The notes: generated by a model from the sequence alone, not told the origin. A stretch of 64,000 bases of DNA from an uncultured Acidobacteriota bacterium (GCA_963837495.1 CAWINF010000003.1:398784-462783), one strand, 5' to 3'. Positions 1,981 through 60,340 are shown, counted from the first letter of the stretch. Program-made: numbers and translations.

Positions 1981-3219
1981 ATGAGCAAACCTGCTCCGGC
2001 GGCAAGACTCTTGGACGAAAGTCCAGTCCCTTTCTTCGACAAGTGTTACCGGTACGACGTGGCGGAACGGGTTCGCCAGGCGGGGGTTTATTCCTTCTTC
2101 CGGGTCATCGAGTCGGCCCAGGACCCCGAGGTCTCGATCGGAGGCCGCCGGCTCATCATGCTCGGGTCCAACAACTACCTCGGGCTGACCAACCATCCCC
2201 GGGTCAAGGAGGCAGCCATCGAAGCGATCCGCCGCTATGGCTCCGGGTGCGCGGGATCCCGCTTCCTGAACGGCACTCTCGACCTTCACGTGCTTCTGGA
2301 GGAGCGGCTCGCGGAGTTCACGCGCCAGGAGGCCGCGATCACGTTCGCGACCGGATTCCAGGTCAATCTGGGGGCGATCTCCTGCCTGGTCGGTAAGGGG
2401 GACACGGTCTATCTCGACAAGCAGGATCACGCCTGCATCATCGACGGGGCGCGCCTCTCCTTCGGCGAAGTCCGCAAGTTCCGCCACAACGATCCCGCCG
2501 ACCTGGGGCGTCAGATGCGGCAGGACGGCGCCAGGGGCCGCTTCATCGTGGTGGACGGGGTCTTCTCGATGGAGGGGGACATCGCGCCCCTTCCGGAGAT
2601 CCTGGCCGCGGCCCGCGCATCCGCCGCCGGAGTCATGGTGGACGATGCCCACGGCATCGGCGTGCTCGGACCGACCGGCCGCGGCACCTGCGAGCATTTC
2701 GGCGTGGAGGAGGAAGTGGACCTGATCATGGGCACCTTCTCCAAGTCTCTGGCTTCCGTGGGAGGGTTCATCTCCGGGGACGCCACCATCATCGACTACA
2801 TCAAGCACAAGGCCCGCACCATGATCTTCTCCGCCGCTCCTCCTCCCGCGTCCGTGGCCGCCGCGCTGGCGACCCTGGACATCATCGAGGAGGAGCCCGA
2901 ACGCCGCGCGCAGCTCTGGCAGAACACGCTCTTCTTCCGGGAAGGGTTGAAATCCCTCGGGCTGGACACCGGCAACTCGCAGACCCCCGTCGTTCCGATC
3001 GTCGTGGGAGAGGATGCCCTCGCGCTGGAGATGGTGCAGCGCCTCCACAAAGCCGGAGTCTTCGTCAACTGCGTCCTGTCGCCGGCCACGCCGCCCGGAC
3101 GCGCGCTCATCCGCACGTCGCTCATGGCCACGCACACCCGCGGGCAGCTCGCGCGCGCGCTCGAAGCGATCGAGAACGTCGGGCGGCAGGTCGGTCTCGT
3201 GCGGACCGTCGAGGTGTGA
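1981..3219 (+). CDS. spt: Serine palmitoyltransferase-like alpha-oxoamine synthase (PLP-dependent).
   Basis: Motifs FFRVIESAQD, GSNNYLGLT, GSGCAGSRFLNGTLD and the PLP-lysine motif GTFSKSLAS, plus a LIRTSLMATHT tail. These are recalled from Sphingomonas Spt; the similarity appears closer to Spt than to BioF/Kbl. Confidence 0.8.
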   Translation: MSKPAPAARLLDESPVPFFDKCYRYDVAERVRQAGVYSFFRVIESAQDPEVSIGGRRLIMLGSNNYLGLTNHPRVKEAAIEAIRRYGSGCAGSRFLNGTLDLHVLLEERLAEFTRQEAAITFATGFQVNLGAISCLVGKGDTVYLDKQDHACIIDGARLSFGEVRKFRHNDPADLGRQMRQDGARGRFIVVDGVFSMEGDIAPLPEILAAARASAAGVMVDDAHGIGVLGPTGRGTCEHFGVEEEVDLIMGTFSKSLASVGGFISGDATIIDYIKHKARTMIFSAAPPPASVAAALATLDIIEEEPERRAQLWQNTLFFREGLKSLGLDTGNSQTPVVPIVVGEDALALEMVQRLHKAGVFVNCVLSPATPPGRALIRTSLMATHTRGQLARALEAIENVGRQVGLVRTVEV

Positions 3220-3234
3220 GGGTCTCCTCCGCCG

Positions 3235-4390
3235 GATGACCTCGATCGAGCCGCTTTCACGGTCGAAGCGGGACCTCTCACGTTTCTTCGACGTCGCGGA
3301 TGGGATCTACCGGGGCGATCCCAACTGGGTTCCACCCTTGCGCGACGACCTCGCGAAGGCGTTCTCGGAGAAGAACCCGTTCTTCCGCCATGCGGAGATG
3401 CAGCTTTTCGTGGCGCGCCGCGGCGGGCAAGACGCGGGCAGGATCGCCGCGATCCTGGACCGCCACCACAACGACTTTCACGGGGAGAAGACGGGCTTCT
3501 TCGGGTTCTTCGAATCGCAGAACGACCGGAGCGTGTCGGACTCCCTCCTCGACGCCGCGGCCGGCTGGGCGCGCCATCGCGGCATGGAGACCCTGCGCGG
3601 ACCCGCGAACCCGAGCCTGAACGACGAGGCCGGCCTGCTCGTGGAGGGATTCGACAAGCCGCCCGTCCTGATGATGACCTACAACCCGCGATACTACGTT
3701 GACCTGATCGAGGCGGCGGGGTTTCGAAAAGCGAAGGACCTCCTCGCCTACTGGTTCGAGATCGGGCCGGAGCCGCTCGCGCGCTTCGCCCGAATCAACG
3801 AACGCTTCCGCAAGCGCGCGGCCGACATCGAAGTCCGCAAAGTCTCCAAGCGGAGCCTGATGGCGGATCTCCCGAAAATCCGGGAGGTCTACAACGACGC
3901 CTGGGAGAAGAACTGGGGCTTCGTGCCGATGACCTCAGAGGAGATGGATTTCATGGCCGCCCGGTTGAAGCCGCTCCTCGACGAGAACTTCCTCTTCCTC
4001 GGCGAGACAAGAAGATCCGACGGATCTCTCGAGCCGATCGCCTTCATGCTCTCCCTGCCCGACTACAACGCCGCCATCCAGCCGCTCGGCGGAAGGCTTC
4101 TGCCTTTCGGCTGGCTGAAGTTCCTCCTGGGACTGAAGAGGATCAAGACACTCCGCGTGGTCACGCTCGGCTTGAAGAAGGACTTCCGCATGCGCGGCAT
4201 CCAGTCCCTCATGTTCGAAGAAGGCCTCAGGGCCGCGCTCAAGCGCGGCCTCACCGGCTGCGAGGTCTCCTGGATGCTCGAGGACAACGACCTCGTGCTG
4301 CGGTCCGTCCGCCTGTGGGGCGGGAAACACTACAAGACCTACCGCATGTACGACCGGCCTCTCGAATCACTCCGCGTGAATCGGTCGTAG
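3235..4390 (+). CDS. GNAT-fold N-acyltransferase (~385 aa); candidate bacterial ceramide synthase (bCerS).
   Basis: ATG at 3235 lies 15 nt after the spt stop. The protein has an acyltransferase-like core (YNDAWEKNWGFVPMTSEEMDF...). Assignment rests on synteny with spt and the SDR gene. Confidence 0.65.
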
Positions 4391-5294: not shown

Positions 5295-6617
5295 ATGAAG
5301 GCAGCGAAAGCGTCTCTCTTTCTTCCGGCGCTCGCGGGCTGCCTTCTTCTTGCCGGCGCCGCGACGGGGGCGGCGAGCGCCGCTCGCGCCCCCCTCGTCG
5401 TCCTTGGCCGCATCGATACCCCGATCCACCCCGCCGCCGCCAACTACCTGAACAAGCTGATCAAGGGCGCGGAGAAGAACGGCGCCGAGCTCGTCGTGGT
5501 GGGCATCTCGACGCCCGGCGGGCTCCTGACCTCGACCCGCGAGATGGTCTCGGCGATTCTTCTCTCCAGCGTCCCGGTCGCGACGTTCGTGTCGCCGTCC
5601 GGCGCTTCCGCCGCCTCGGCGGGTTTCTTCCTGCTGGAGTCGGGGGACGTCGCGGCGATGGCTCCCGGGACGAACTCGGGGGCCGCGCACCCGGTGGCCG
5701 GAGAAGGCCAGGACCTGCCCAAGACCTTGAACGAGAAGGCGGAGCAGGATGCGCGGGCCTTCATCCGGAGTCTCGCGCGTCAGCGGGGGAGAAACGCCGA
5801 TGCGGCCGAGTCCGCGGTCACGTCCAGCAAGTCCTTCACGGAAACGGAGGCGAAGGGGTCGAACCTCATCGAGGTCGTCGCCCGCGACGTGCCGGACCTG
5901 TTGAACCAGCTCGACGGGCGGACGATCCAGCGCGTCGGCGAGAAGCAAACGACCCTTCACTTGAAGGGCTACCGTCTCGAGACCCGGGAGATGAGCGGGC
6001 TCGAGAAGGTCCTGGGCGTCGTCTCCCACCCCAACGTCGCCTACATTCTCTTCCTGCTCGGGCTCGTGGGCCTCTACTTCGAGATGTCGAGCCCCGGCGC
6101 GGTGCTGCCGGGCGTCGTGGGCGGAATCTCGCTGCTTCTGGCGCTCTACGCGTTCTCGGTTCTTCCCGTCAACCTCGCCGGGCTGGCCCTGATCCTCTTC
6201 GCCGTGCTGCTCTTCATCGCCGAGGTCAAGGCGGCGAGCCACGGCGTTCTGGCCGTCGGCGGGGCGATCGCGCTGGTGGCGGGATCCCTCCTGCTCTTCT
6301 CGGGACGCGGGGACCAGGGCTACCAAGTGGACCTCTCCATCATCCTGCCGGGCGTCGCGTTGACGCTGGCCGTCGTGGGATTCCTGACGTTTCGGACGAT
6401 CTCGCTGCGGCGAATGCCCGTGAGGACAGGGGTGTCCGGCCTGCTCGGGAAGAACGCGCGGGTGGTGCGGTCCGCCGCCGAGCCGGACTCCCCGGGCACG
6501 GTGCTCCTCGAAGGAGAATACTGGGACGCCTATGGAGCCCCCGGCGCCGCCCCGGGCGATACGGTCCGCGTGGTCGGCATGGAAGGGTTGAAACTTCGAG
6601 TTGAACGGAGGACGTGA
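5295..6617 (+). CDS. NfeD-family membrane-bound serine protease (ClpP-like N-domain plus C-terminal OB domain).
   Basis: Signal peptide, ClpP-like region GISTPGG, TM block and a C-terminal beta-barrel tail. Its stop overlaps the start of the SPFH gene (ATGA). Confidence 0.85.
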
Positions 6618-7375
6618 TGCCGCAGGCTCTTCCCGGTTTCGTCTTTGCCGCCCTGGTCCTGCTCCTCTTCCTTTTCAAGTGGATCAACATCCTGAAGGAG
6701 TATGAGCGCGCCGTGACGTTCTGGCTCGGGCGGCTTTCGAAGCAGCCCAAGGGACCGGGTCTCGTCTTGATCTTCTGGCCGGTCGAGACGATGGTCCGGA
6801 TGTCCCTTCGCACGATCGTCCACGACGTGCCGTCGCAGGACATCATCACGAAGGACAACGTCTCGGTGAAGGTGAACGCGGTCGTCTATTTCCGCGTGGT
6901 CCAGCCGGACAAAGCGGTGGTCCAGGTGGAGAACTATCTCTACGCCACCTCGCAGCTCGCCCAGACGACCCTTCGCAGCGTGCTCGGCCAGGCCACGCTG
7001 GACGAGCTTCTGTCGGAGCGGGACAAGCTGAACCTCTCCCTCCAGCAGGTCATCGACGAGCACACGGAACCCTGGGGCATCAAGGTTTCGCTCGTCGAAG
7101 TCAAGCAGGTGGATCTGCCCCCGGAGATGCAGCGCGCGATGGCCAGGCAGGCGGAGGCAGAGCGCGAGAAGCGGGCCAAGATCATCCACGCCGAAGGAGA
7201 GGCCCAGGCGGCCGAGAAGCTCTCCGAGGCGGCCGCGATCATCGGCCGCGAACCGGCCACTCTGCAGCTGCGGTACCTCCAGACGCTCACGGAGCTAGCG
7301 AGCGAGAAGAACTCGACCATCGTCTTCCCGCTGCCGATCGACCTGTTGAAGGCCTTCCTGCCGAAGGACAAGTAG
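6614..7375 (+). CDS. SPFH/band-7 (stomatin-like) protein.
   Basis: N-terminal TM, then a canonical band-7 core ([33 protein letters not shown], coiled-coil [11 protein letters not shown]). Classic nfeD-stomatin operon. Confidence 0.9.
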
Positions 7376-12193: not shown

Positions 12194-13078
12194 TCAATGC
12201 GCGTAGGTCTTCTCACCGGCCTCAATGCGGATTCCAAGTCGGTTCTGAGCCGGCGGCAAGGGACATGTCGCGTAAGGCGTGAATACGCAGGGCGGGTTGT
12301 AGGCCTTGTTGAAGTCCAGAACGACGCGCCCGTTCATGTCCGGCGGCGCCGCGTAGAGGAAACGGCCGCCCCCGTAGGTCTCGATGCCGTTTGTCTGGTC
12401 CCCGAAGATCAGGAAGAGGTCCTCGGTTCCCGACTCGGCGACCGCGTCAATTCGAAACTCCCTCCCTCCGAGGCGGAAGACGACCGCGCCCGGAGATTTC
12501 TCCTGTTCGATCGAGCCGAGGATGTTGGGGACGGCGATCGTCTTGCCGGCCGGATAGGCGTCGAAGCGCGCGTCGAACCGCCACTTCAGATCGATGGGGT
12601 AGCTTTCGATGCCGTGGAACGCCAGGAGCGCCGGGCTTCGGCTGTCCTTGACCCGGACGCCGAAGCGTTTCCCTCTCCGGACCAAATAGAAGCTGACGCT
12701 GCCGCGCCGGAGAAGGGTCGGCTCACCCTCCGCGTCGGAACGAAGCGCCATCGTCGCGGCGGGACGCCCGCCAACCGTGAGACCGGCGTCCGGCCAGGCC
12801 CGGAGGGTGACCACTCCTCCCGAGAGATCGAGGGAGCCCAGCGCCTTGCCTCCTTTCGCCTCGGGAAAGACGATGCGGTTGGTCTTCGGATCGACGCCGA
12901 AAGCGTTCTGTCCTTCGTGCAGCCAGAAGAGGCCAACGAGCGTCAACCACCCATCCTCCTTCTTCAGGCTCGCCACCCTCTTCGCTCGCCACGCCTCGAC
13001 GTCCGCCCGCTGCGTCTCGGCCGTGGTCGCAGGCTTCGCAACCCTGCGAGGACTCGGGACCAAAATCGAGCCCATCAT
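12194..13078 (-). CDS. DUF1684-like protein.
   Basis: WRAKRVASLKKEDGWLTLVGLFWLHEGQNAFG matches the DUF1684 signature. The listed 433-aa ORF extends its N-terminus through the tRNA-derived repeat array and is rejected. Likely start is ATG 13078 or GTG 13116. Confidence 0.6.
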   Translation of the reverse strand: MMGSILVPSPRRVAKPATTAETQRADVEAWRAKRVASLKKEDGWLTLVGLFWLHEGQNAFGVDPKTNRIVFPEAKGGKALGSLDLSGGVVTLRAWPDAGLTVGGRPAATMALRSDAEGEPTLLRRGSVSFYLVRRGKRFGVRVKDSRSPALLAFHGIESYPIDLKWRFDARFDAYPAGKTIAVPNILGSIEQEKSPGAVVFRLGGREFRIDAVAESGTEDLFLIFGDQTNGIETYGGGRFLYAAPPDMNGRVVLDFNKAYNPPCVFTPYATCPLPPAQNRLGIRIEAGEKTYAH

Positions 13079-13149
13079 CAGAAAAGAGAATGCGCCGAGC
13101 CAAGGCCAATGCCAGCGACCGTTCACGCATCCGATTCTAGGCCACGGTC

Positions 13150-13616
13150 CTCGGCTCATGGAAGCCAGCCGTGTCCGGACACGGCTCGTGGAGAGATCTC
13201 GATCGACAGAGGAGAGTTGGTGGCCCCAACGAGACTCGAACCCGTGCCGCGGCCTCCGGGGGGCTCGGGGGGCACCACGTGCCCCCCGCTCATGGAGCCA
13301 GCCGTGTCCGGACACGGCTCGTGAAGAGATCTCGATCGACAGAGGAGAACTGGTGGCCCCAACGGGACTCGAACCCGTGCCGCGGCCTCCGGGGGGCTCG
13401 GGGGGCATCACGTGCCCCCCGCTCATGGAGCCAGCCGTGTCCGGACACGGCTCGTGGAGAGATCTCGATCGACAGAGGAGAACTGGTGGCCCCAACGGGA
13501 CTCGAACCCGTGCCGCGGCCTCCGGGGGGCTCGGGGGGCACCACGTGCCCCCCGCTCATGGAGCCAGCCGTGTTCGGACACGGCTCGTGGAGAGATCTCG
13601 ATCGACAGAGGAGAAC
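13150..13616 (-). repeat. Tandem array of tRNA-Glu-derived units, period 133 bp. Three perfect units start (plus-strand coordinates) at 13218, 13351 and 13484; a partial unit covers 13150-13217.
   Basis: On the minus strand each unit ends with the exact tRNA-Glu T-arm and acceptor 3' strand plus CCA (ggccgcggcacgggttcgagtcccgttggggccacca). This is preceded by two perfect GC hairpins (GGGGGGCAC..GUGCCCCCC and AGCCGUGUCC/GGACACGGCU) and a palindromic GATCGAGATCTC segment. Confidence 0.85.
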
Positions 13617-13691
13617 TGGTGGCCCCAACGGGACTCGAACCCGTGCCGCGGCCTTGAAAGAGCCGTGTCCTAACCACTAGACGATGGGGCC
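13617..13691 (-). tRNA. tRNA-Glu(UUC).
   Basis: Minus strand GGCCCCATCGTCTAGTGGTTAGGACACGGCTCTTTCAAGGCCGCGGCACGGGTTCGAGTCCCGTTGGGGCCACCA. It has a full cloverleaf, anticodon loop CTTTCAA and an encoded CCA. Confidence 0.9.
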
Positions 13692-13854
13692 CGAAAAAAC
13701 GATAGCACGCATGTCATATTGAGCCGAACTGCGAGGGACTCGAACCCGTGCCGCGGCCTCCGGGGGGCTCGGGGGGCCACATGGCCCCCCGCTCAAATCA
13801 GCCAGGCGTGTCGGCTCCGCAGGAGCCGTGTCCTAACCACTAGACGATGGGGCC
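13692..13854 (-). ncRNA. tRNA-Glu-like pseudo-tRNA or structured RNA unit (163 nt).
   Basis: Intact tRNA-Glu 5' half (GGCCCCATCGTCTAGTGGTTAGGACACGGCT). The anticodon loop is replaced by a 7-bp stem with a UGC triloop. A ~60-nt GC-hairpin insertion and a T-arm follow, but the acceptor 3' strand is non-complementary. It ends GCGUGCUAUCGUUUUUUCG. Confidence 0.5.
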
Positions 13855-14018
13855 CGAAAAAACGATAGCACGCATGTCATATTGAGCCGAACTGCGAGGG
13901 ACTCGAACCCGTGCCGCGGCCTCCGGGGGGCTCGGGGGGCCACATGGCCCCCCGCTCAAATCGGCCAGCCGTGTCGGCCGCGTAGCGGCCGTGTCCTAAC
14001 CACCTAGACGATGGGGCC
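13855..14018 (-). ncRNA. Second tRNA-Glu-like pseudo-unit (164 nt), paralogous to 13692-13854.
   Basis: Same architecture. The replaced anticodon arm differs by compensatory pairs (CGGCUCC-UGC-GGAGCCG versus CGGCCGC-UAC-GCGGCCG). Confidence 0.5.
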
Positions 14019-14110
14019 TCGGACCGAGAAAAACGATAGCACGGGGATCTCATTCCGCGCCGAGCAGCGCGGGACTCGAACCGGTACCGCCGGCGCCGGT
14101 GAGCCCCTCA
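14019..14110 (-). repeat. Partial third tRNA-like unit (T-arm-like GGTTCGAGTCC, CUAUCGUUUUUC spacer and GC hairpins).
   Basis: Contains gcgggactcgaaccggtacc and the perfect palindrome ccctctcccgccgggagaggg. Confidence 0.4.
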
Positions 14111-14146
14111 CCCCGACCCTCTCCCGCCGGGAGAGGGAGAAGGGCG

Positions 14147-14179
14147 CTAAAAACAGAAGTGCCGGCTTGCGCCGGCACT
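14147..14179 (-). terminator. Rho-independent terminator for the small secreted-protein gene.
   Basis: Minus-strand hairpin AGUGCCGGC-GCAA-GCCGGCACU followed by UCUGUUUUU, about 25 nt after the stop at 14204. Confidence 0.7.
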
Positions 14180-14203
14180 CGATGATCCGTGATCGGCGGA
14201 GTC

Positions 14204-14515
14204 TTACTTCGAGGGGGCCTTGGTGGGCTCGGGCTTGGCGGGCTCGGTTTCCATCTTCGTCTCGGTGCTCTTCTTGGTGGTGGTCTTGCCCTTCTTGGTC
14301 ACCTTCTTGTGGGCCTTCTTCTTGGTGGTCATCTTCTTGCCCGGTTCCTTGGTCTCAGTCGTGGTCGAGGTGCTCGTGGACTGGGAGCCGGTGACCGGGT
14401 TCGTCGACTTCTTCGACTCCGTCGAGGACTTGGTTTCCGTGGTCTGCGCGAAGACGCCGGTCGGGAAGGCCAGCGCCACCGCCAGGGCCACGAACTTCAA
14501 CAGGGACTTCTTCAT
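14204..14515 (-). CDS. Small secreted Ser/Thr/Lys-rich low-complexity protein (103 aa).
   Basis: Strong RBS AAAGGAGAG 7 nt upstream of the ATG. Signal peptide MKKSLLKFVALAVALAFPTGVFA and a downstream terminator. Confidence 0.75.
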   Translation of the reverse strand: MKKSLLKFVALAVALAFPTGVFAQTTETKSSTESKKSTNPVTGSQSTSTSTTTETKEPGKKMTTKKKAHKKVTKKGKTTTKKSTETKMETEPAKPEPTKAPSK

Positions 14516-14723
14516 CTTTTCTCTCCTTTTCGGCGCGGGGCACTACGCACCGCGTCACTCACAGGCAGGGACTCTAGATCTCTGCGAGTGAACCCAACAT
14601 GAACGCGGGAACGGCCTTTCGAGGAGTCTCGAACTCATTGAGACTATTGGTCTTGTGCCGCAGCGCTCCAGCGTCCAGAGAGGAACTTTCAGACTCGGCT
14701 TCGCCTCCTCAAACCTGTGAGAT

Positions 14724-17700
14724 TCACGCGCCGGCGGCGCTGCCGGGACCGGCAAGCCTGCCCCGGGGATCCAGAAAGGAGTAGAGGGCGGGCAGCACGA
14801 GAAGAACGAGAGGGCCGGACAGGAGGAATCCTCCGATGACGGCGATCGCGAGCGGTTGCTGGAGCTGCGCGCCCTCGCCCAGCGCGAACGCCAGCGGGGC
14901 GAGAGCGAAGACACTCGCAAGGACCGTCATCGCGACGGGCCGCAGCCGCCGGCGAGCCGCGGCTCTCCACGCCTGCGCGGGAACGAGGCCCTCGCGCAGG
15001 GACTTCCGCGCCTCATGAATGACGAAGATGGCGTTCTCGCCGACGATTCCGACCATCATGATCGCGCCGACGAAGCTGGAGATGTTGAGCGTCATTCCCG
15101 TCAGCAGGAGGAGGCCGAAGACACCGGCCAGGACCGCCAGCGCGATAACACTCGTGACCAGCGGAGCCCTCCAATCCCCGAACTCGAAGAGAAGGACGAC
15201 GGAGACCAGGACGAGTCCCGCGATCAACACGAGCAGGAGTCCCTTGAACGAGGCCTGTTGCTGCTCGTAGATCCCTCCGAATCGGATCTCCATGCCCGGA
15301 GGCAGGTCGAGCCTCGTCTGGAGCGCGGTGCGGATCTCCGAGATGGCGCCTCCCAGGTCACGGCCGGAGAGGCGGGCGGTCACTCCGAGGAACGTCTTCA
15401 AATTCTCGCGGTCGATCTCCGCCTCGGGGGGACCGGTCGAGAGCGTGGCGATGGTCGAGAGCGGCACGAGCGCGCCCGAAGGAGTCCGGATCTTGAGCTG
15501 GTCCAGGCCCGCCGGAGCATTCTCGAAGACGCGAATGTCATAGACGCGTTCGCCGACACGGAGTGTTCCGGCGACGGTTCCCGTGACGGCCGGCTCCACG
15601 ACGGCATGAAGGTCTTCCGTCGTGAGCCCGAACCGCGACGCCTCTTCTCCCGCGGCGGAGCCAGACGTCGCGGCTTCGCGAAAGCGAGGCCGAACGTTCA
15701 GGGCGGGGCCGGCGATGACGACTCCATCGAAGACGTCCTCAACGCCTCGGACCGAGGAGATGATCCGGGCGGCTTCGCGCGCCTTGCGCTGGAGCAGCGC
15801 CTGGTCCTCTCCGAAGATCTTGATGTCGATGGGCTGAGGCGCGCCACCGGTCAGGTCTCCGATGTTGTCCTCGATGAGCTGCCCGAAGTCTGTGCGGAGG
15901 GCGGGCTCGACCGCCGCCAGCCGCGCGCGAAGGTCGTCGATGATGGCGCCGGCGGGGCGCCGGGCCTTACGAGGCTTCAACTTGATCACGTAGTCGCCGC
16001 GGTTGGGCTCCGTGATGAAGAAGCCGAGCTGGGTGCCGGTGCGGCGGGAGTAACTCTGGACGTCGGGAAGCGATCGGATGATCTTCTCGGCCTCGGAAAG
16101 GATCGTGTCCGTATCGGTTAACGAGGTTCCGGGCGGGGTCCAGTAGTCGAGGATGATCGAGCCCTCGTCCATGGAAGGGAGGAAGTCGCTTCCGATCATC
16201 CGGGAAAGGACATATCCGCCGGCCCACAGAAGGAGAGCGGCCGCGATCGGAAGAACCGGACGCCGAAGAAACAGACCGAGGGCGCGGTCGAGGCGCCGGC
16301 CCCGAGGAGGTCCCTGCCTCTTTGCCGGCGGGAGCGAGGAACCGGCCGCCAGCGGGACCGCGAACACCGCCAGGAAGAATGAAACGACGAGCGCCAGGGC
16401 CATCGTCAGCGCGAGAGGCTTGAAGAACGCGCCGGCGACGCCGGTCAGCAGCGCGAAAGGGACGAAGATGATGATCGTCGAGAGGCTCGATCCGACGAGC
16501 GCCGGCAGCAGGTCTGCCACGCCGCGCCCGGCCGGGTCGTCCGCGCGCTCCTCCCGTTTCCTGTGGATGTTCTCGACGACGACGATCGCGTCGTCGGCGA
16601 TGAGGCCAAGGGCGGCGGCGATCCCTCCGAGAGTCATGAGATTGATGGTCTGTCCCACCGCACCGAGCAGGAGCAACACGACCGCGACGCTCACGGGGAT
16701 GGCGGCGACGGCGATCAGGGTCAGCCGCAGGCTTCGAAGGAACAACAGCAGGACGATTGCGGCCAGAACGACGCCGATGAGGATCGCGTCGCGGGCGCCG
16801 CCGACCGAGCGGGAAACAAACGTCGCCTGGTCGTAGAAAGGCGTCCAGGTGACGTCGCGGGGAATGAGCCCCGGTTTCTCCTTGAAGATTGCCGCGACCC
16901 CCCGCGCGATGTCCACCGTGTTGGCCGCGGGCTGGCGGATCAGGTTGACGAGGACGGCCGGACGTCCGTCGGCCGTCGTCCGGATGTAGGAAACGGCGTC
17001 GCCCGCCGCAACCGTTCCGAGCTCCCCGACGTGCGCCGGGACACCGCCTCCCGGGACCGGCACCGGGATTTGCGCCACTGCGTCGGTTCCAGCGGCGCGT
17101 CCATCCACGAGCGCAAGGTAGAGCTCGTGGTTGGCCTCGGTCAGCCCCGCGGAGAGAATCTGGTTGTTCTTCCTGACCGCCGTGACGACGTCGGCGGAAG
17201 AGAGTCGCCGGCCGGCGAGCGCCTGCGAGTCCAGGCGAACCTGAAACTCGCGCTTGCGGCCTCCCTGGATCTGGACCTCGGAGACACCGGGAATGCGGAT
17301 GAGCTCGGGCTTCAGCACGAACTCGGCCAGGACAAGCAGCTCGGCCTGGCTGCGGGTCGGCGAGGAGAGCGCGTAGCCCAGGATCGGGAAGATCGCGGTG
17401 TTCATCCACTCGACGTCCATTCTCGCGCCGGCGGGAAGGTCCGGTCGGATCCGCTCGACTTCCGCCTGGACGCGCTGAAGGGCCGTCTGCATGTCGGTCC
17501 CCCAGGCAAAGTTGGCGGAGATCTCCGTTGATCCGCGGGATGTCGTCGAGAGGACCCGGAGGATTCCGGGCACGCGAAGAATCGCTTCCTCAAGCGGGCG
17601 CGTCACCGTCGGCATCATCCAGGCGGCCGGCTCTTCGCCGACGTCGGCGATCACTTTCACGAGCGGAAACGTGACCGAAGGGAAGATCGAGGACGGCAGG

Positions 17701-60263: not shown

Positions 60264-60340
60264 TGGTGGGCCGCGTGGGACTCGAACCCACGACCACCGG
60301 CTTAAAAGGCCGATGCTCTAACCAACTGAGCTAGCGGCCC
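60264..60340 (-). tRNA. tRNA-Lys(UUU).
   Basis: Minus strand GGGCCGCTAGCTCAGTTGGTTAGAGCATCGGCCTTTTAAGCCGGTGGTCGTGGGTTCGAGTCCCACGCGGCCCACCA; anticodon loop CTTTTAA, encoded CCA. Confidence 0.9.

Follow-up and report, generated by a model that had tools for sequence, protein, structure and literature searches.

What are the ordered arrays of tRNA-Glu fragments that surround an intact tRNA-Glu(UUC) gene in an uncultured Acidobacteriota bacterium, and which processes have produced and kept them? The locus lies in a stretch of 64,000 nt (GCA_963837495.1 CAWINF010000003.1:398784-462783), the whole of which is called the window here and from whose first letter all coordinates are counted. A preliminary description had reported three identical 133-bp units and a fourth partial one downstream of the tRNA gene, and had offered two explanations for them: iterated attB/attP-type remnants at a tRNA integration hotspot, or a tandemly amplified tRNA-like structured RNA. 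In this work we argue, with moderate confidence, that the live tRNA-Glu(UUC) gene sits inside tandem decayed copies of its own transcription unit, which would have been shaped by unequal recombination and gene conversion, and that a short insert shared by these copies, termed M, is constrained.

The live gene of the locus is tRNA-Glu(UUC) on the minus strand (13617..13691), which is intact, 75 nt long and carries an encoded CCA; ARAGORN and Rfam (RF00005, 67.1 bits, E 7e-14) agree on it, as on its first description. The RF00005 threshold was reached only at 13620-13691, and neither the downstream (D) nor the upstream (U) units were listed at E<=1. Downstream of the gene a tandem array was delimited by Tandem Repeats Finder (TRF) at 13154-13654 with a period of 133 bp, 3.8 copies and 97% matches. 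All its units are read from the minus strand: D1 (13484..13616), D2 (13351..13483) and D3 (13218..13350) of 133 bp each, and the partial terminal unit D4 (13154..13217), the 64 nt of which hold the spacer, the palindrome and GGCTTCCATGAGC. The array and its partial copy stand as first described, but the three full units are not identical, since they differ pairwise by 2-3 substitutions (97.7-98.5% identity; D2 is 98.5% identical to D1, and D3 97.7% identical to both). Likewise, the last 37 nt of D1 and D2 are exactly the last 37 nt of the tRNA, as had been claimed for every unit, but D3 has one mismatch to this segment, in the T loop/stem (GAGTCTC).

Each D unit begins with a 30-nt spacer and a 20-bp palindrome, continues with the 49-nt insert M and closes with tRNA positions 39-76, CCA included. 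The right arm of the palindrome (AGCCGTGTCC|GGACACGGCT) equals tRNA positions 22-31; the 5′ part of the unit, previously considered non-tRNA sequence, is therefore tRNA-derived to a larger extent than had been stated. M occupies the place of the anticodon loop in both D and U units and consists of GGCTCCATGAGC, a G6...C6 hairpin and GAGCCCCCCGGA, in this order; D units lack tRNA positions 1-21 as well as the anticodon loop. The repeat search located the 20-bp palindrome (AGCCGTGTCCGGACACGGCT) in four copies at 13566-13585, 13433-13452, 13300-13319 and 13167-13186, and the G6...C6 hairpin of M at 13532-13554, 13399-13421 and 13266-13288 in the D units and at 13770-13791 and 13933-13954 in the U units. 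Two perfect GC hairpins per unit had been proposed, but the first is mismatched in D1 and the second in D2, and GATCGAGATCTC, taken for one palindrome, resolves into two overlapping 8-nt palindromes (TCGATCGA and GAGATCTC). Within the 64 kb the G6...C6 hairpin type is confined to this locus, and so is a 24-mer from M, with five occurrences versus 0.01 expected by chance. D4 and the relatives keep GGCTTCC, whereas a private 1-nt deletion (GGCTCC) is common to D1-D3; this fits a recent expansion of D1-D3 from one variant unit, or a homogenisation that has spared the edge copy.

The preliminary description had missed a second tandem array, located upstream of the tRNA gene at 13660-14018 (TRF: period 163, 2.2 copies, 95% matches) and continued by a partial unit to about 14105, all on the minus strand. 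Unit U2 (13692..13854, 163 bp) is composed of tRNA positions 1-32, a 6-bp mini-hairpin, M, tRNA positions 39-64 and a leader with the promoter-like GTGCTATCGTTTTTT, and U1 (13855..14018, 164 bp) is of the same type; both possess the T arm and lack the acceptor 3′ strand and the anticodon loop. The degenerate partial unit U0 (14019..14105) holds the T-arm-like GGTTCGAGTCCC at 14071-14082, then GCTGCTCGGCG, then the promoter-like GTGCTATCGTTTTT, and includes a 74% copy of the repeat family at 14047-14104; equivalent remnants have been found in the related loci L039 and L040. The motif GTGCTATCGTTTTT closes each U unit and also precedes the live tRNA. A comparison of loci suggests that U units can be derived from a duplicated block [promoter - tRNA - spacer - D] by internal deletion, because locus L037 retains an intermediate form, a U in which a spacer and a complete D-type unit come after the tRNA 5′ half.

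The same layout recurs in other genomes. A scan of a genome collection with the palindrome pattern gave seven loci in metagenome-assembled genomes (MAGs) of Acidobacteriota/Thermoanaerobaculia, in five of which (L008, L009, L013, L014, L015) the match adjoins tRNA-Glu(UUC) in the order U - tRNA - D, and a metagenome scan added 22 further soil contigs, most of them with the U - tRNA-Glu - D layout. The number of D copies ranges from 1 to 3 among independent assemblies. Matches of the genome scan in Pseudoduganella (L007) and 'Eubacteriales' (L012) were rejected as chance hits, inside coding-like DNA with no tRNA nearby. A second sample, independent of the repeat, was drawn via the neighbouring AcrB gene. 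In this sample a partial U, three U units and the tRNA were found in L039 (88% identity), a U remnant and the tRNA in L040 (87%), U, tRNA and D in L041 (74%), and a partial U, two U units and the tRNA but no D in L042 (71%); the tRNA-Glu context is absent from the AcrB homologues L043 and L044. The M core was not included in any search pattern. Judged by its flanking proteins, the window itself belongs to Acidobacteriota, near MAGs named Thermoanaerobaculia, and the U - tRNA-Glu - D layout characterises the lineage of Thermoanaerobaculia-like Acidobacteriota and is not a private accident of this genome.

Some relatives depart from the common layout. At L031 a tRNA-Glu(CUC) gene (2182-2256, minus strand) is preceded by a U0-like remnant matching its own T arm and has behind it an M module fused to a 3′ half of UUC type; because M stands here beside a CUC gene, the module is not strictly tied to the UUC isoacceptor gene. 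At L042 (8520-9100) two occurrences of M, that of the first full U unit and that of the partial copy before it, are followed by a copy of the tRNA's own 3′ flank (CTTTCGGCGCGG...) and not by the T arm, as though M had taken the place of tRNA positions 32-76 in these flank-copy units; the U unit adjoining the tRNA ends in a GCGGCAC...GTGCCGC-type hairpin. At L016 (3678-5340), and likewise at L025, a degenerate D and another, short D-like unit, which ends in GAGTCCCGTTGGGGCCGCCA, have between them about 1.5 kb without a long open reading frame (ORF), possibly an insertion within the D array.

The insert M differs from its surroundings in its conservation. Mean pairwise identity among 11 genomes is 0.40 in the 45-nt leader, 0.42 in the spacer, 0.80 in the M core and 0.92 in the 3′ half, and since M is far better conserved between genomes than the adjacent spacers, it is, on this comparative evidence, under some constraint. 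The tRNA 3′ halves vary between genomes in T-loop/variable-region bases (GAATCC, GAACCC, GATTCC, GACTCC), and every D after the tRNA matches the resident tRNA 3′ half in L009, L014, L017, L018, L020, L022, L024, L034 and L037. In L008, L015 and L036 the D 3′ half differs from the tRNA of the same locus at one or two positions, and the U and D units of L036 share a T-loop T-to-C change that is not in the tRNA. Variants of M private to a genome are common to its U and D units, as GGCGGACGTTAGC in L017, a G5/C5 stem in L014, CTCTCATGAGC in L041 and GAGCCCCCC in the window. The pattern shows that U and D are kept alike within each genome and that the D 3′ half is held to the sequence of the live tRNA, to all appearances by gene conversion.

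These features can be accommodated in one mechanism. Copy number would shift by unequal homologous recombination or replication slippage between direct repeats of 37 to 133 bp, D1-D3 probably representing a recent expansion of a single variant, and gene conversion would homogenise U, D and the tRNA 3′ half. As there is no terminator between the tRNA and the D units, the latter are most likely co-transcribed as a tRNA 3′ trailer, and cleavage of this trailer at the tRNA-like 3′ ends would release RNAs of about 130 nt, by analogy with the RtT repeats of Escherichia coli. Our best guess on the constraint is that M acts where it stands in the U units: it may serve the tRNA-Glu promoter as upstream element or leader hairpin, or its hairpin may stabilise the precursor, and the D copies of M would then be carried along by conversion.

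In relatives the tRNA-Glu locus has been shown to be an integration hotspot, in line with that part of the preliminary description. Segments of 45 bp, extending from the anticodon loop (CTTTCAAGG) to CCA (tRNA positions 32-76), are directly repeated there around variable DNA of 1.6-3.7 kb with conserved arms, beside the units (L003, L020, L032, L039, L040). Two such remnants enclose a 1.6-kb DUF7450 islet in L003, L021 and L028, followed by the spacer, a degenerate D, MazE/PIN genes and DUF1684; the order is tRNA, 3.7 kb, remnant (positions 32-76), spacer and D in L020, and remnant, spacer, D, 2.6 kb and remnant in L032. The conserved arm TTCGATTTCGAGRGRTCC comes after the tRNA in L020 and L039, after the D unit in L009 and after the displaced 3′ remnant in L003, L021, L028 and L032, and variants of it with one mismatch occur behind the tRNA in L040 and behind the last D in L022/L035. 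Sampled island genes encode IS3 transposases, TPR proteins, LysR, a histidine kinase or an M4 peptidase, or have no Pfam match. The DNA after D and the island arm in L009 contains two IS3-family transposase genes (rve, HTH_21) at 2719-3678 and 5799-6716. Scans of viral contigs for the palindrome, the tRNA 3′ half and the island arm returned nothing, and no phage or provirus attP was tied to the locus.

Could the 133-bp units then be pure integration scars, each the residue of an island that integrated, displaced the old 3′ half and was later deleted, with the non-tRNA part of the unit as the island arm and the array as a tally of past integrations? Besides the hotspot itself, displaced tRNA 3′ fragments, presented as a general principle of island ends in the Islander work (PMC4383910), speak for it, as does the likeness of the first ~9 nt after CCA in the window spacer (ACTCTCCTC / GTTCTCCTC) to the way in which the island arm begins (ACTCTCCTCAAACGAC in L040; CTTCTCCTCAAAGGAC in L003). 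However, the true attR-type scars of relatives (L003, L020, L032) begin at the anticodon loop and are preceded by arms with CGAATC and GTCCCACC, unlike M, whereas the units of the window abut through a 30-nt spacer with no foreign DNA between them, and in them the match to the tRNA sets in at position 39, after M. M is also present upstream of the tRNA, where scars of 3′ halves are not expected, and its identity of 80% contrasts with about 40% in the spacers; D directly follows the tRNA, with no intervening island, in L014, L018 and L034; and the island arm motif is absent from the window. We consider such an origin improbable, and on this comparison the D units are resident parts of the locus at island borders, not scars themselves; they may reach these borders through homologous exchange between 3′-half copies. 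A related idea, that a miniature integrative element in the form of a 133-bp circle (3′ half, spacer, palindrome and M) was inserted or excised by an island-encoded recombinase, one unit per event, would yield exactly the observed tRNA-(spacer-palindrome-M-3′ half)n, would place the unit boundaries at the tRNA 3′ segment used by the islands, and would agree with horizontal spread as the cause of the similarity of M between distant genomes. We find it very hard to maintain: no recombinase was found in the sampled islands, a circle of 133 bp is mechanically unfavourable, the identity block of the islands begins at an anticodon loop that D does not have, the D 3′ half tracks the host tRNA and not a mobile consensus, and the U units are left unexplained. 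Duplication of a single unit by the assembler deserves mention, as short tandem repeats are prone to copy-number errors, but it is scarcely credible in view of the unit-specific substitutions, the different variant in the terminal unit and the recurrence of arrays of 2-3 internally different units in independent assemblies, including L022 and L035 (identical, from different samples), L014 (on a 1.27-Mb contig), L018 (two units) and L033 (three units).

The tandemly amplified tRNA-like RNA of the preliminary description fares better in its amplification, its conserved M and its covarying hairpin top than in its tRNA-like fold. The top of the G6/C6 stem covaries between AT, CG and GC across genomes, and pairing is retained in most variants. 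The mini-hairpin of U differs between U1 and U2 by two compensatory pairs (CGGCCG/CGGCCG vs CGGCTC/GAGCCG); in ten genomes it is 98% paired, with two pairs changed on both sides, and none of 500 shuffles (0/500) reached the observed covariation score or percentage of cells paired. The 82-nt core of the D unit folds as a four-way junction with a 7-bp acceptor-like stem, in which the proposed GGCUCCA/UGGGGCC pairing can indeed form with one G-U, and, with one U bulged, this stem can pair in 89.5% of cells in a set of 22 units. A processed, stable RNA from D (perhaps also from U), which would consist of the acceptor-like stem, a long G6/C6 arm and a genuine T arm with CCA, would act as mimic or decoy for a tRNA-binding enzyme or else as a regulator, and would be amplified for dosage, could rely on this fold, on the acceptance of D1 as a tRNA by ARAGORN, on the identity of the 3′ half to the live tRNA, and on the E. 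coli analogue, which gives a real RNA annotated rttR. We nevertheless regard it as rather unlikely. The acceptor-like stem displays no compensatory change across the 22 units, 4-6 of which break its inner pairs, and the RNAalifold consensus omits it and contains no cloverleaf; covariation of the whole structure is not above shuffles (39/500), in an alignment of 89% mean column identity whose sequences are close to one another. The acceptor/CCA end is lost in the D units of L010/L019 and the T arm in L003, L016 and L029, and gene conversion explains the identity of the 3′ half equally well. Among Rfam families only tRNA, at the live gene, scored above threshold, and the RtT RNA model (RF00391) had no match at E<=1 in window positions 12500-14800. 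A tRNA-like fold of the D units is, on these predictions, possible. More generally, the M-bearing units might be an undescribed selected RNA/DNA module of the Thermoanaerobaculia tRNA-Glu locus, an idea that we entertain only tentatively. It may take the form of precursor-derived small RNAs with a genuine T arm, acceptor strand and CCA, which possibly act on a tRNA-Glu-handling enzyme or on tRNA-Glu expression, or of a multi-copy landing pad maintained by the host, by which integrating elements would possibly be diverted from an essential gene.

Several points weigh against the view of decayed copies of the transcription unit with a constrained M. Most loci were found by the palindrome pattern, so that the conservation of the palindrome and of GGCTGGC is ascertainment-biased, and horizontal spread of the module could mimic selective conservation. 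D is not universal, as L042 has U without D and L015 has D without a full U. A sigma-70 scan gave no promoter in the region, and the minimum-free-energy z-scores of single units are unremarkable (-0.7 and -1.7). No Phage_integrase was detected among the ORFs tested from L009, L011, L020, L028, L032 and L035, a limited sampling of the islands, and the site-specific origin of the 45-bp repeats is deduced from their anatomy. Finally, the transcription and processing of D and U and any function of M are predictions from sequence.

Other candidates were rejected. As already stated in the preliminary description, the array is not a CRISPR (clustered regularly interspaced short palindromic repeats) array, since the entire 133-bp unit repeats with no unique spacers, nor is it coding. 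A small Tpr-like ORF was dismissed on two grounds: the ATG in CATGAGC varies between units (TTTGAGC, GTTAGC and CATAGGC are among the forms met), and a period of 133 nt is not divisible by three. The confinement of the G6/C6 hairpins and the M 24-mer to this locus within the 64 kb excluded genome-wide repetitive extragenic palindromes, miniature inverted-repeat transposable elements or IS200-type hairpin elements; outside the window the non-tRNA part, whose search had been proposed, was found as M in related Acidobacteriota genomes and soil contigs. For a group I intron in the anticodon loop the insert is too short (49 nt vs at least 200 nt expected), no intron family was matched at E<=1 and the pseudo-tRNA is incomplete. 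The partial call of D1 as tRNA-Gly(CCC) by ARAGORN (13484-13565, minus strand) is a false positive, as the Rfam tRNA model does not match there.

The closest known analogue of the array is, by its architecture, the 178-bp RtT repeats of the E. coli tyrT/tyrV loci. In NC_000913.3 tyrV is followed by 3.1 copies of 178 bp (95%), each ending in the 3′ 19 nt of tRNA-Tyr and annotated as rttR/tpr, and this locus (L038) gave four Rfam RtT (RF00391) matches of 133-137 bits. One repeat unit of the tyrT operon is stated to encode rttR (PMC3318445, citing Bosl & Kersten 1991), and one recent preprint still calls the mode of action of RtT unknown. Both arrays consist of about three near-identical head-to-tail units after a tRNA (133 bp x 3.8, 97% here), which end in the exact tRNA 3′ end with CCA, contain a T-loop-like piece and are not protein-driven. 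They differ in that sequence and structure are not homologous, the RtT model matching E. coli and not the window; that E. coli reuses 19 nt of the tRNA, as compared with 37 nt plus positions 22-31 here; and that the E. coli repeat encodes a small Tpr peptide, whereas here the start codon is not conserved and the period shifts the frame. Neither the upstream 5′-half array nor the shared insert has a counterpart in the E. coli stretch examined, other enterobacteria being outside the comparison.

Displaced tRNA 3′ fragments at island ends and the accretion of integrase-less islets of the cis-mobilizable element (CIME) type share with the locus the direct repeats of a tRNA 3′ segment beside the tRNA, and the islets bounded by 45-bp segments in relatives, with conserved arms and no integrase, resemble them. 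The window differs in having nothing between its repeats, in the lack of a crossover junction where identity begins, and in units that also lie 5′ of the tRNA and are conserved across genomes. A third comparison is with tRNA fragments miscalled as tRNA genes, an error class described by van der Gulik et al. 2023 (PMC9897764), which D1 resembles as a partial tRNA-derived sequence scored as tRNA-Gly(CCC); the fragments treated in that work are single ones from integration or CRISPR activity, not conserved tandem units evolving in concert.

The locus is preceded by an RND (resistance-nodulation-division) efflux operon and by a 103-aa Lys/Thr-rich ORF that has a canonical terminator. The ORF (14204-14515, minus strand) encodes a signal peptide and a low-complexity body without a Pfam match, and its terminator is at 14157-14180; because both precede the tRNA-Glu locus in many relatives (L009, L013, L015, L037, L039-L042), this side represents conserved synteny. 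The repeat search also revealed a promoter-like motif CGTGCTATCGTTTTT with an extended -10-like TGCTATCGT in three copies on the minus strand (13695-13709, 13858-13872, 14029-14043), one before the tRNA and one before each U unit, and the motif is kept upstream of tRNA-Glu and U units in other loci; we infer that it functions as a promoter. The extended -10-like element at 13699-13707 ends only 7 nt short of the mature tRNA-Glu 5′ end (13691), so that the primary transcript may begin at or beside the mature end; the corresponding gap is 12-25 nt in other loci. Elsewhere in the window a tRNA-Lys(UUU) gene is located at 60264-60340 (minus strand), and a 12-mer scan showed no extra T-loop copies beside it.

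On the other side the array runs up to the DUF1684 gene, as first described, and stops about 25 nt before its in-frame GTG (13126; Pfam 5.8e-45). D4 breaks off exactly at the would-be start of the G6/C6 hairpin and is joined there to the DUF1684 upstream region. The end of D4 (13154) is, by comparison with relatives, a rearrangement breakpoint, because the blocks that abut there are separated by about 230 kb in the closest long relative (L001 + L039, one contig, ENA ERZ25039463 contig_46352), with AcrB/tRNA-Glu at 11.5-22.6 kb and DUF1684/NUDIX/RF/Lnt at 251-260 kb. Relatives reached via DUF1684 (L001, L002, L006) have no tRNA upstream of this gene, so the DUF1684 side is a rearrangement junction and not conserved synteny. 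The start of DUF1684 is most likely GTG 13126, whose counterpart in an alignment with the L006 homologue is an ATG; the database call begins at ATG 13078. A TAGAAT at 13139-13134 (minus strand), the -35 position of which falls inside D4, is only 7 nt upstream of the GTG and suggests a leaderless or near-leaderless mRNA. Due to the high G+C content (67% in the window), spurious long ORFs cross the array at 12194-13495 (minus strand, 433 aa), prolonging the DUF1684 frame into D2-D4, and at 12777-13673 (plus strand, 298 aa).

The units thus mislead tRNA finders and inflate ORF calls in a genome of this composition, and the false tRNA-Gly call from D1 could enter annotations. Mobile DNA classically lands in tRNA genes, and the tRNA fragments left over are usually regarded as inert scars. 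In this little-studied soil lineage the fragments are ordered into arrays that flank a live tRNA gene on either side, share a conserved insert and evolve in concert with the gene. If M acts in the expression of tRNA-Glu, in the processing of its precursor or in recombination, the units would be the second known tRNA-linked repeat RNA after RtT of E. coli, and would offer a comparative handle on the problem of the RtT mode of action.

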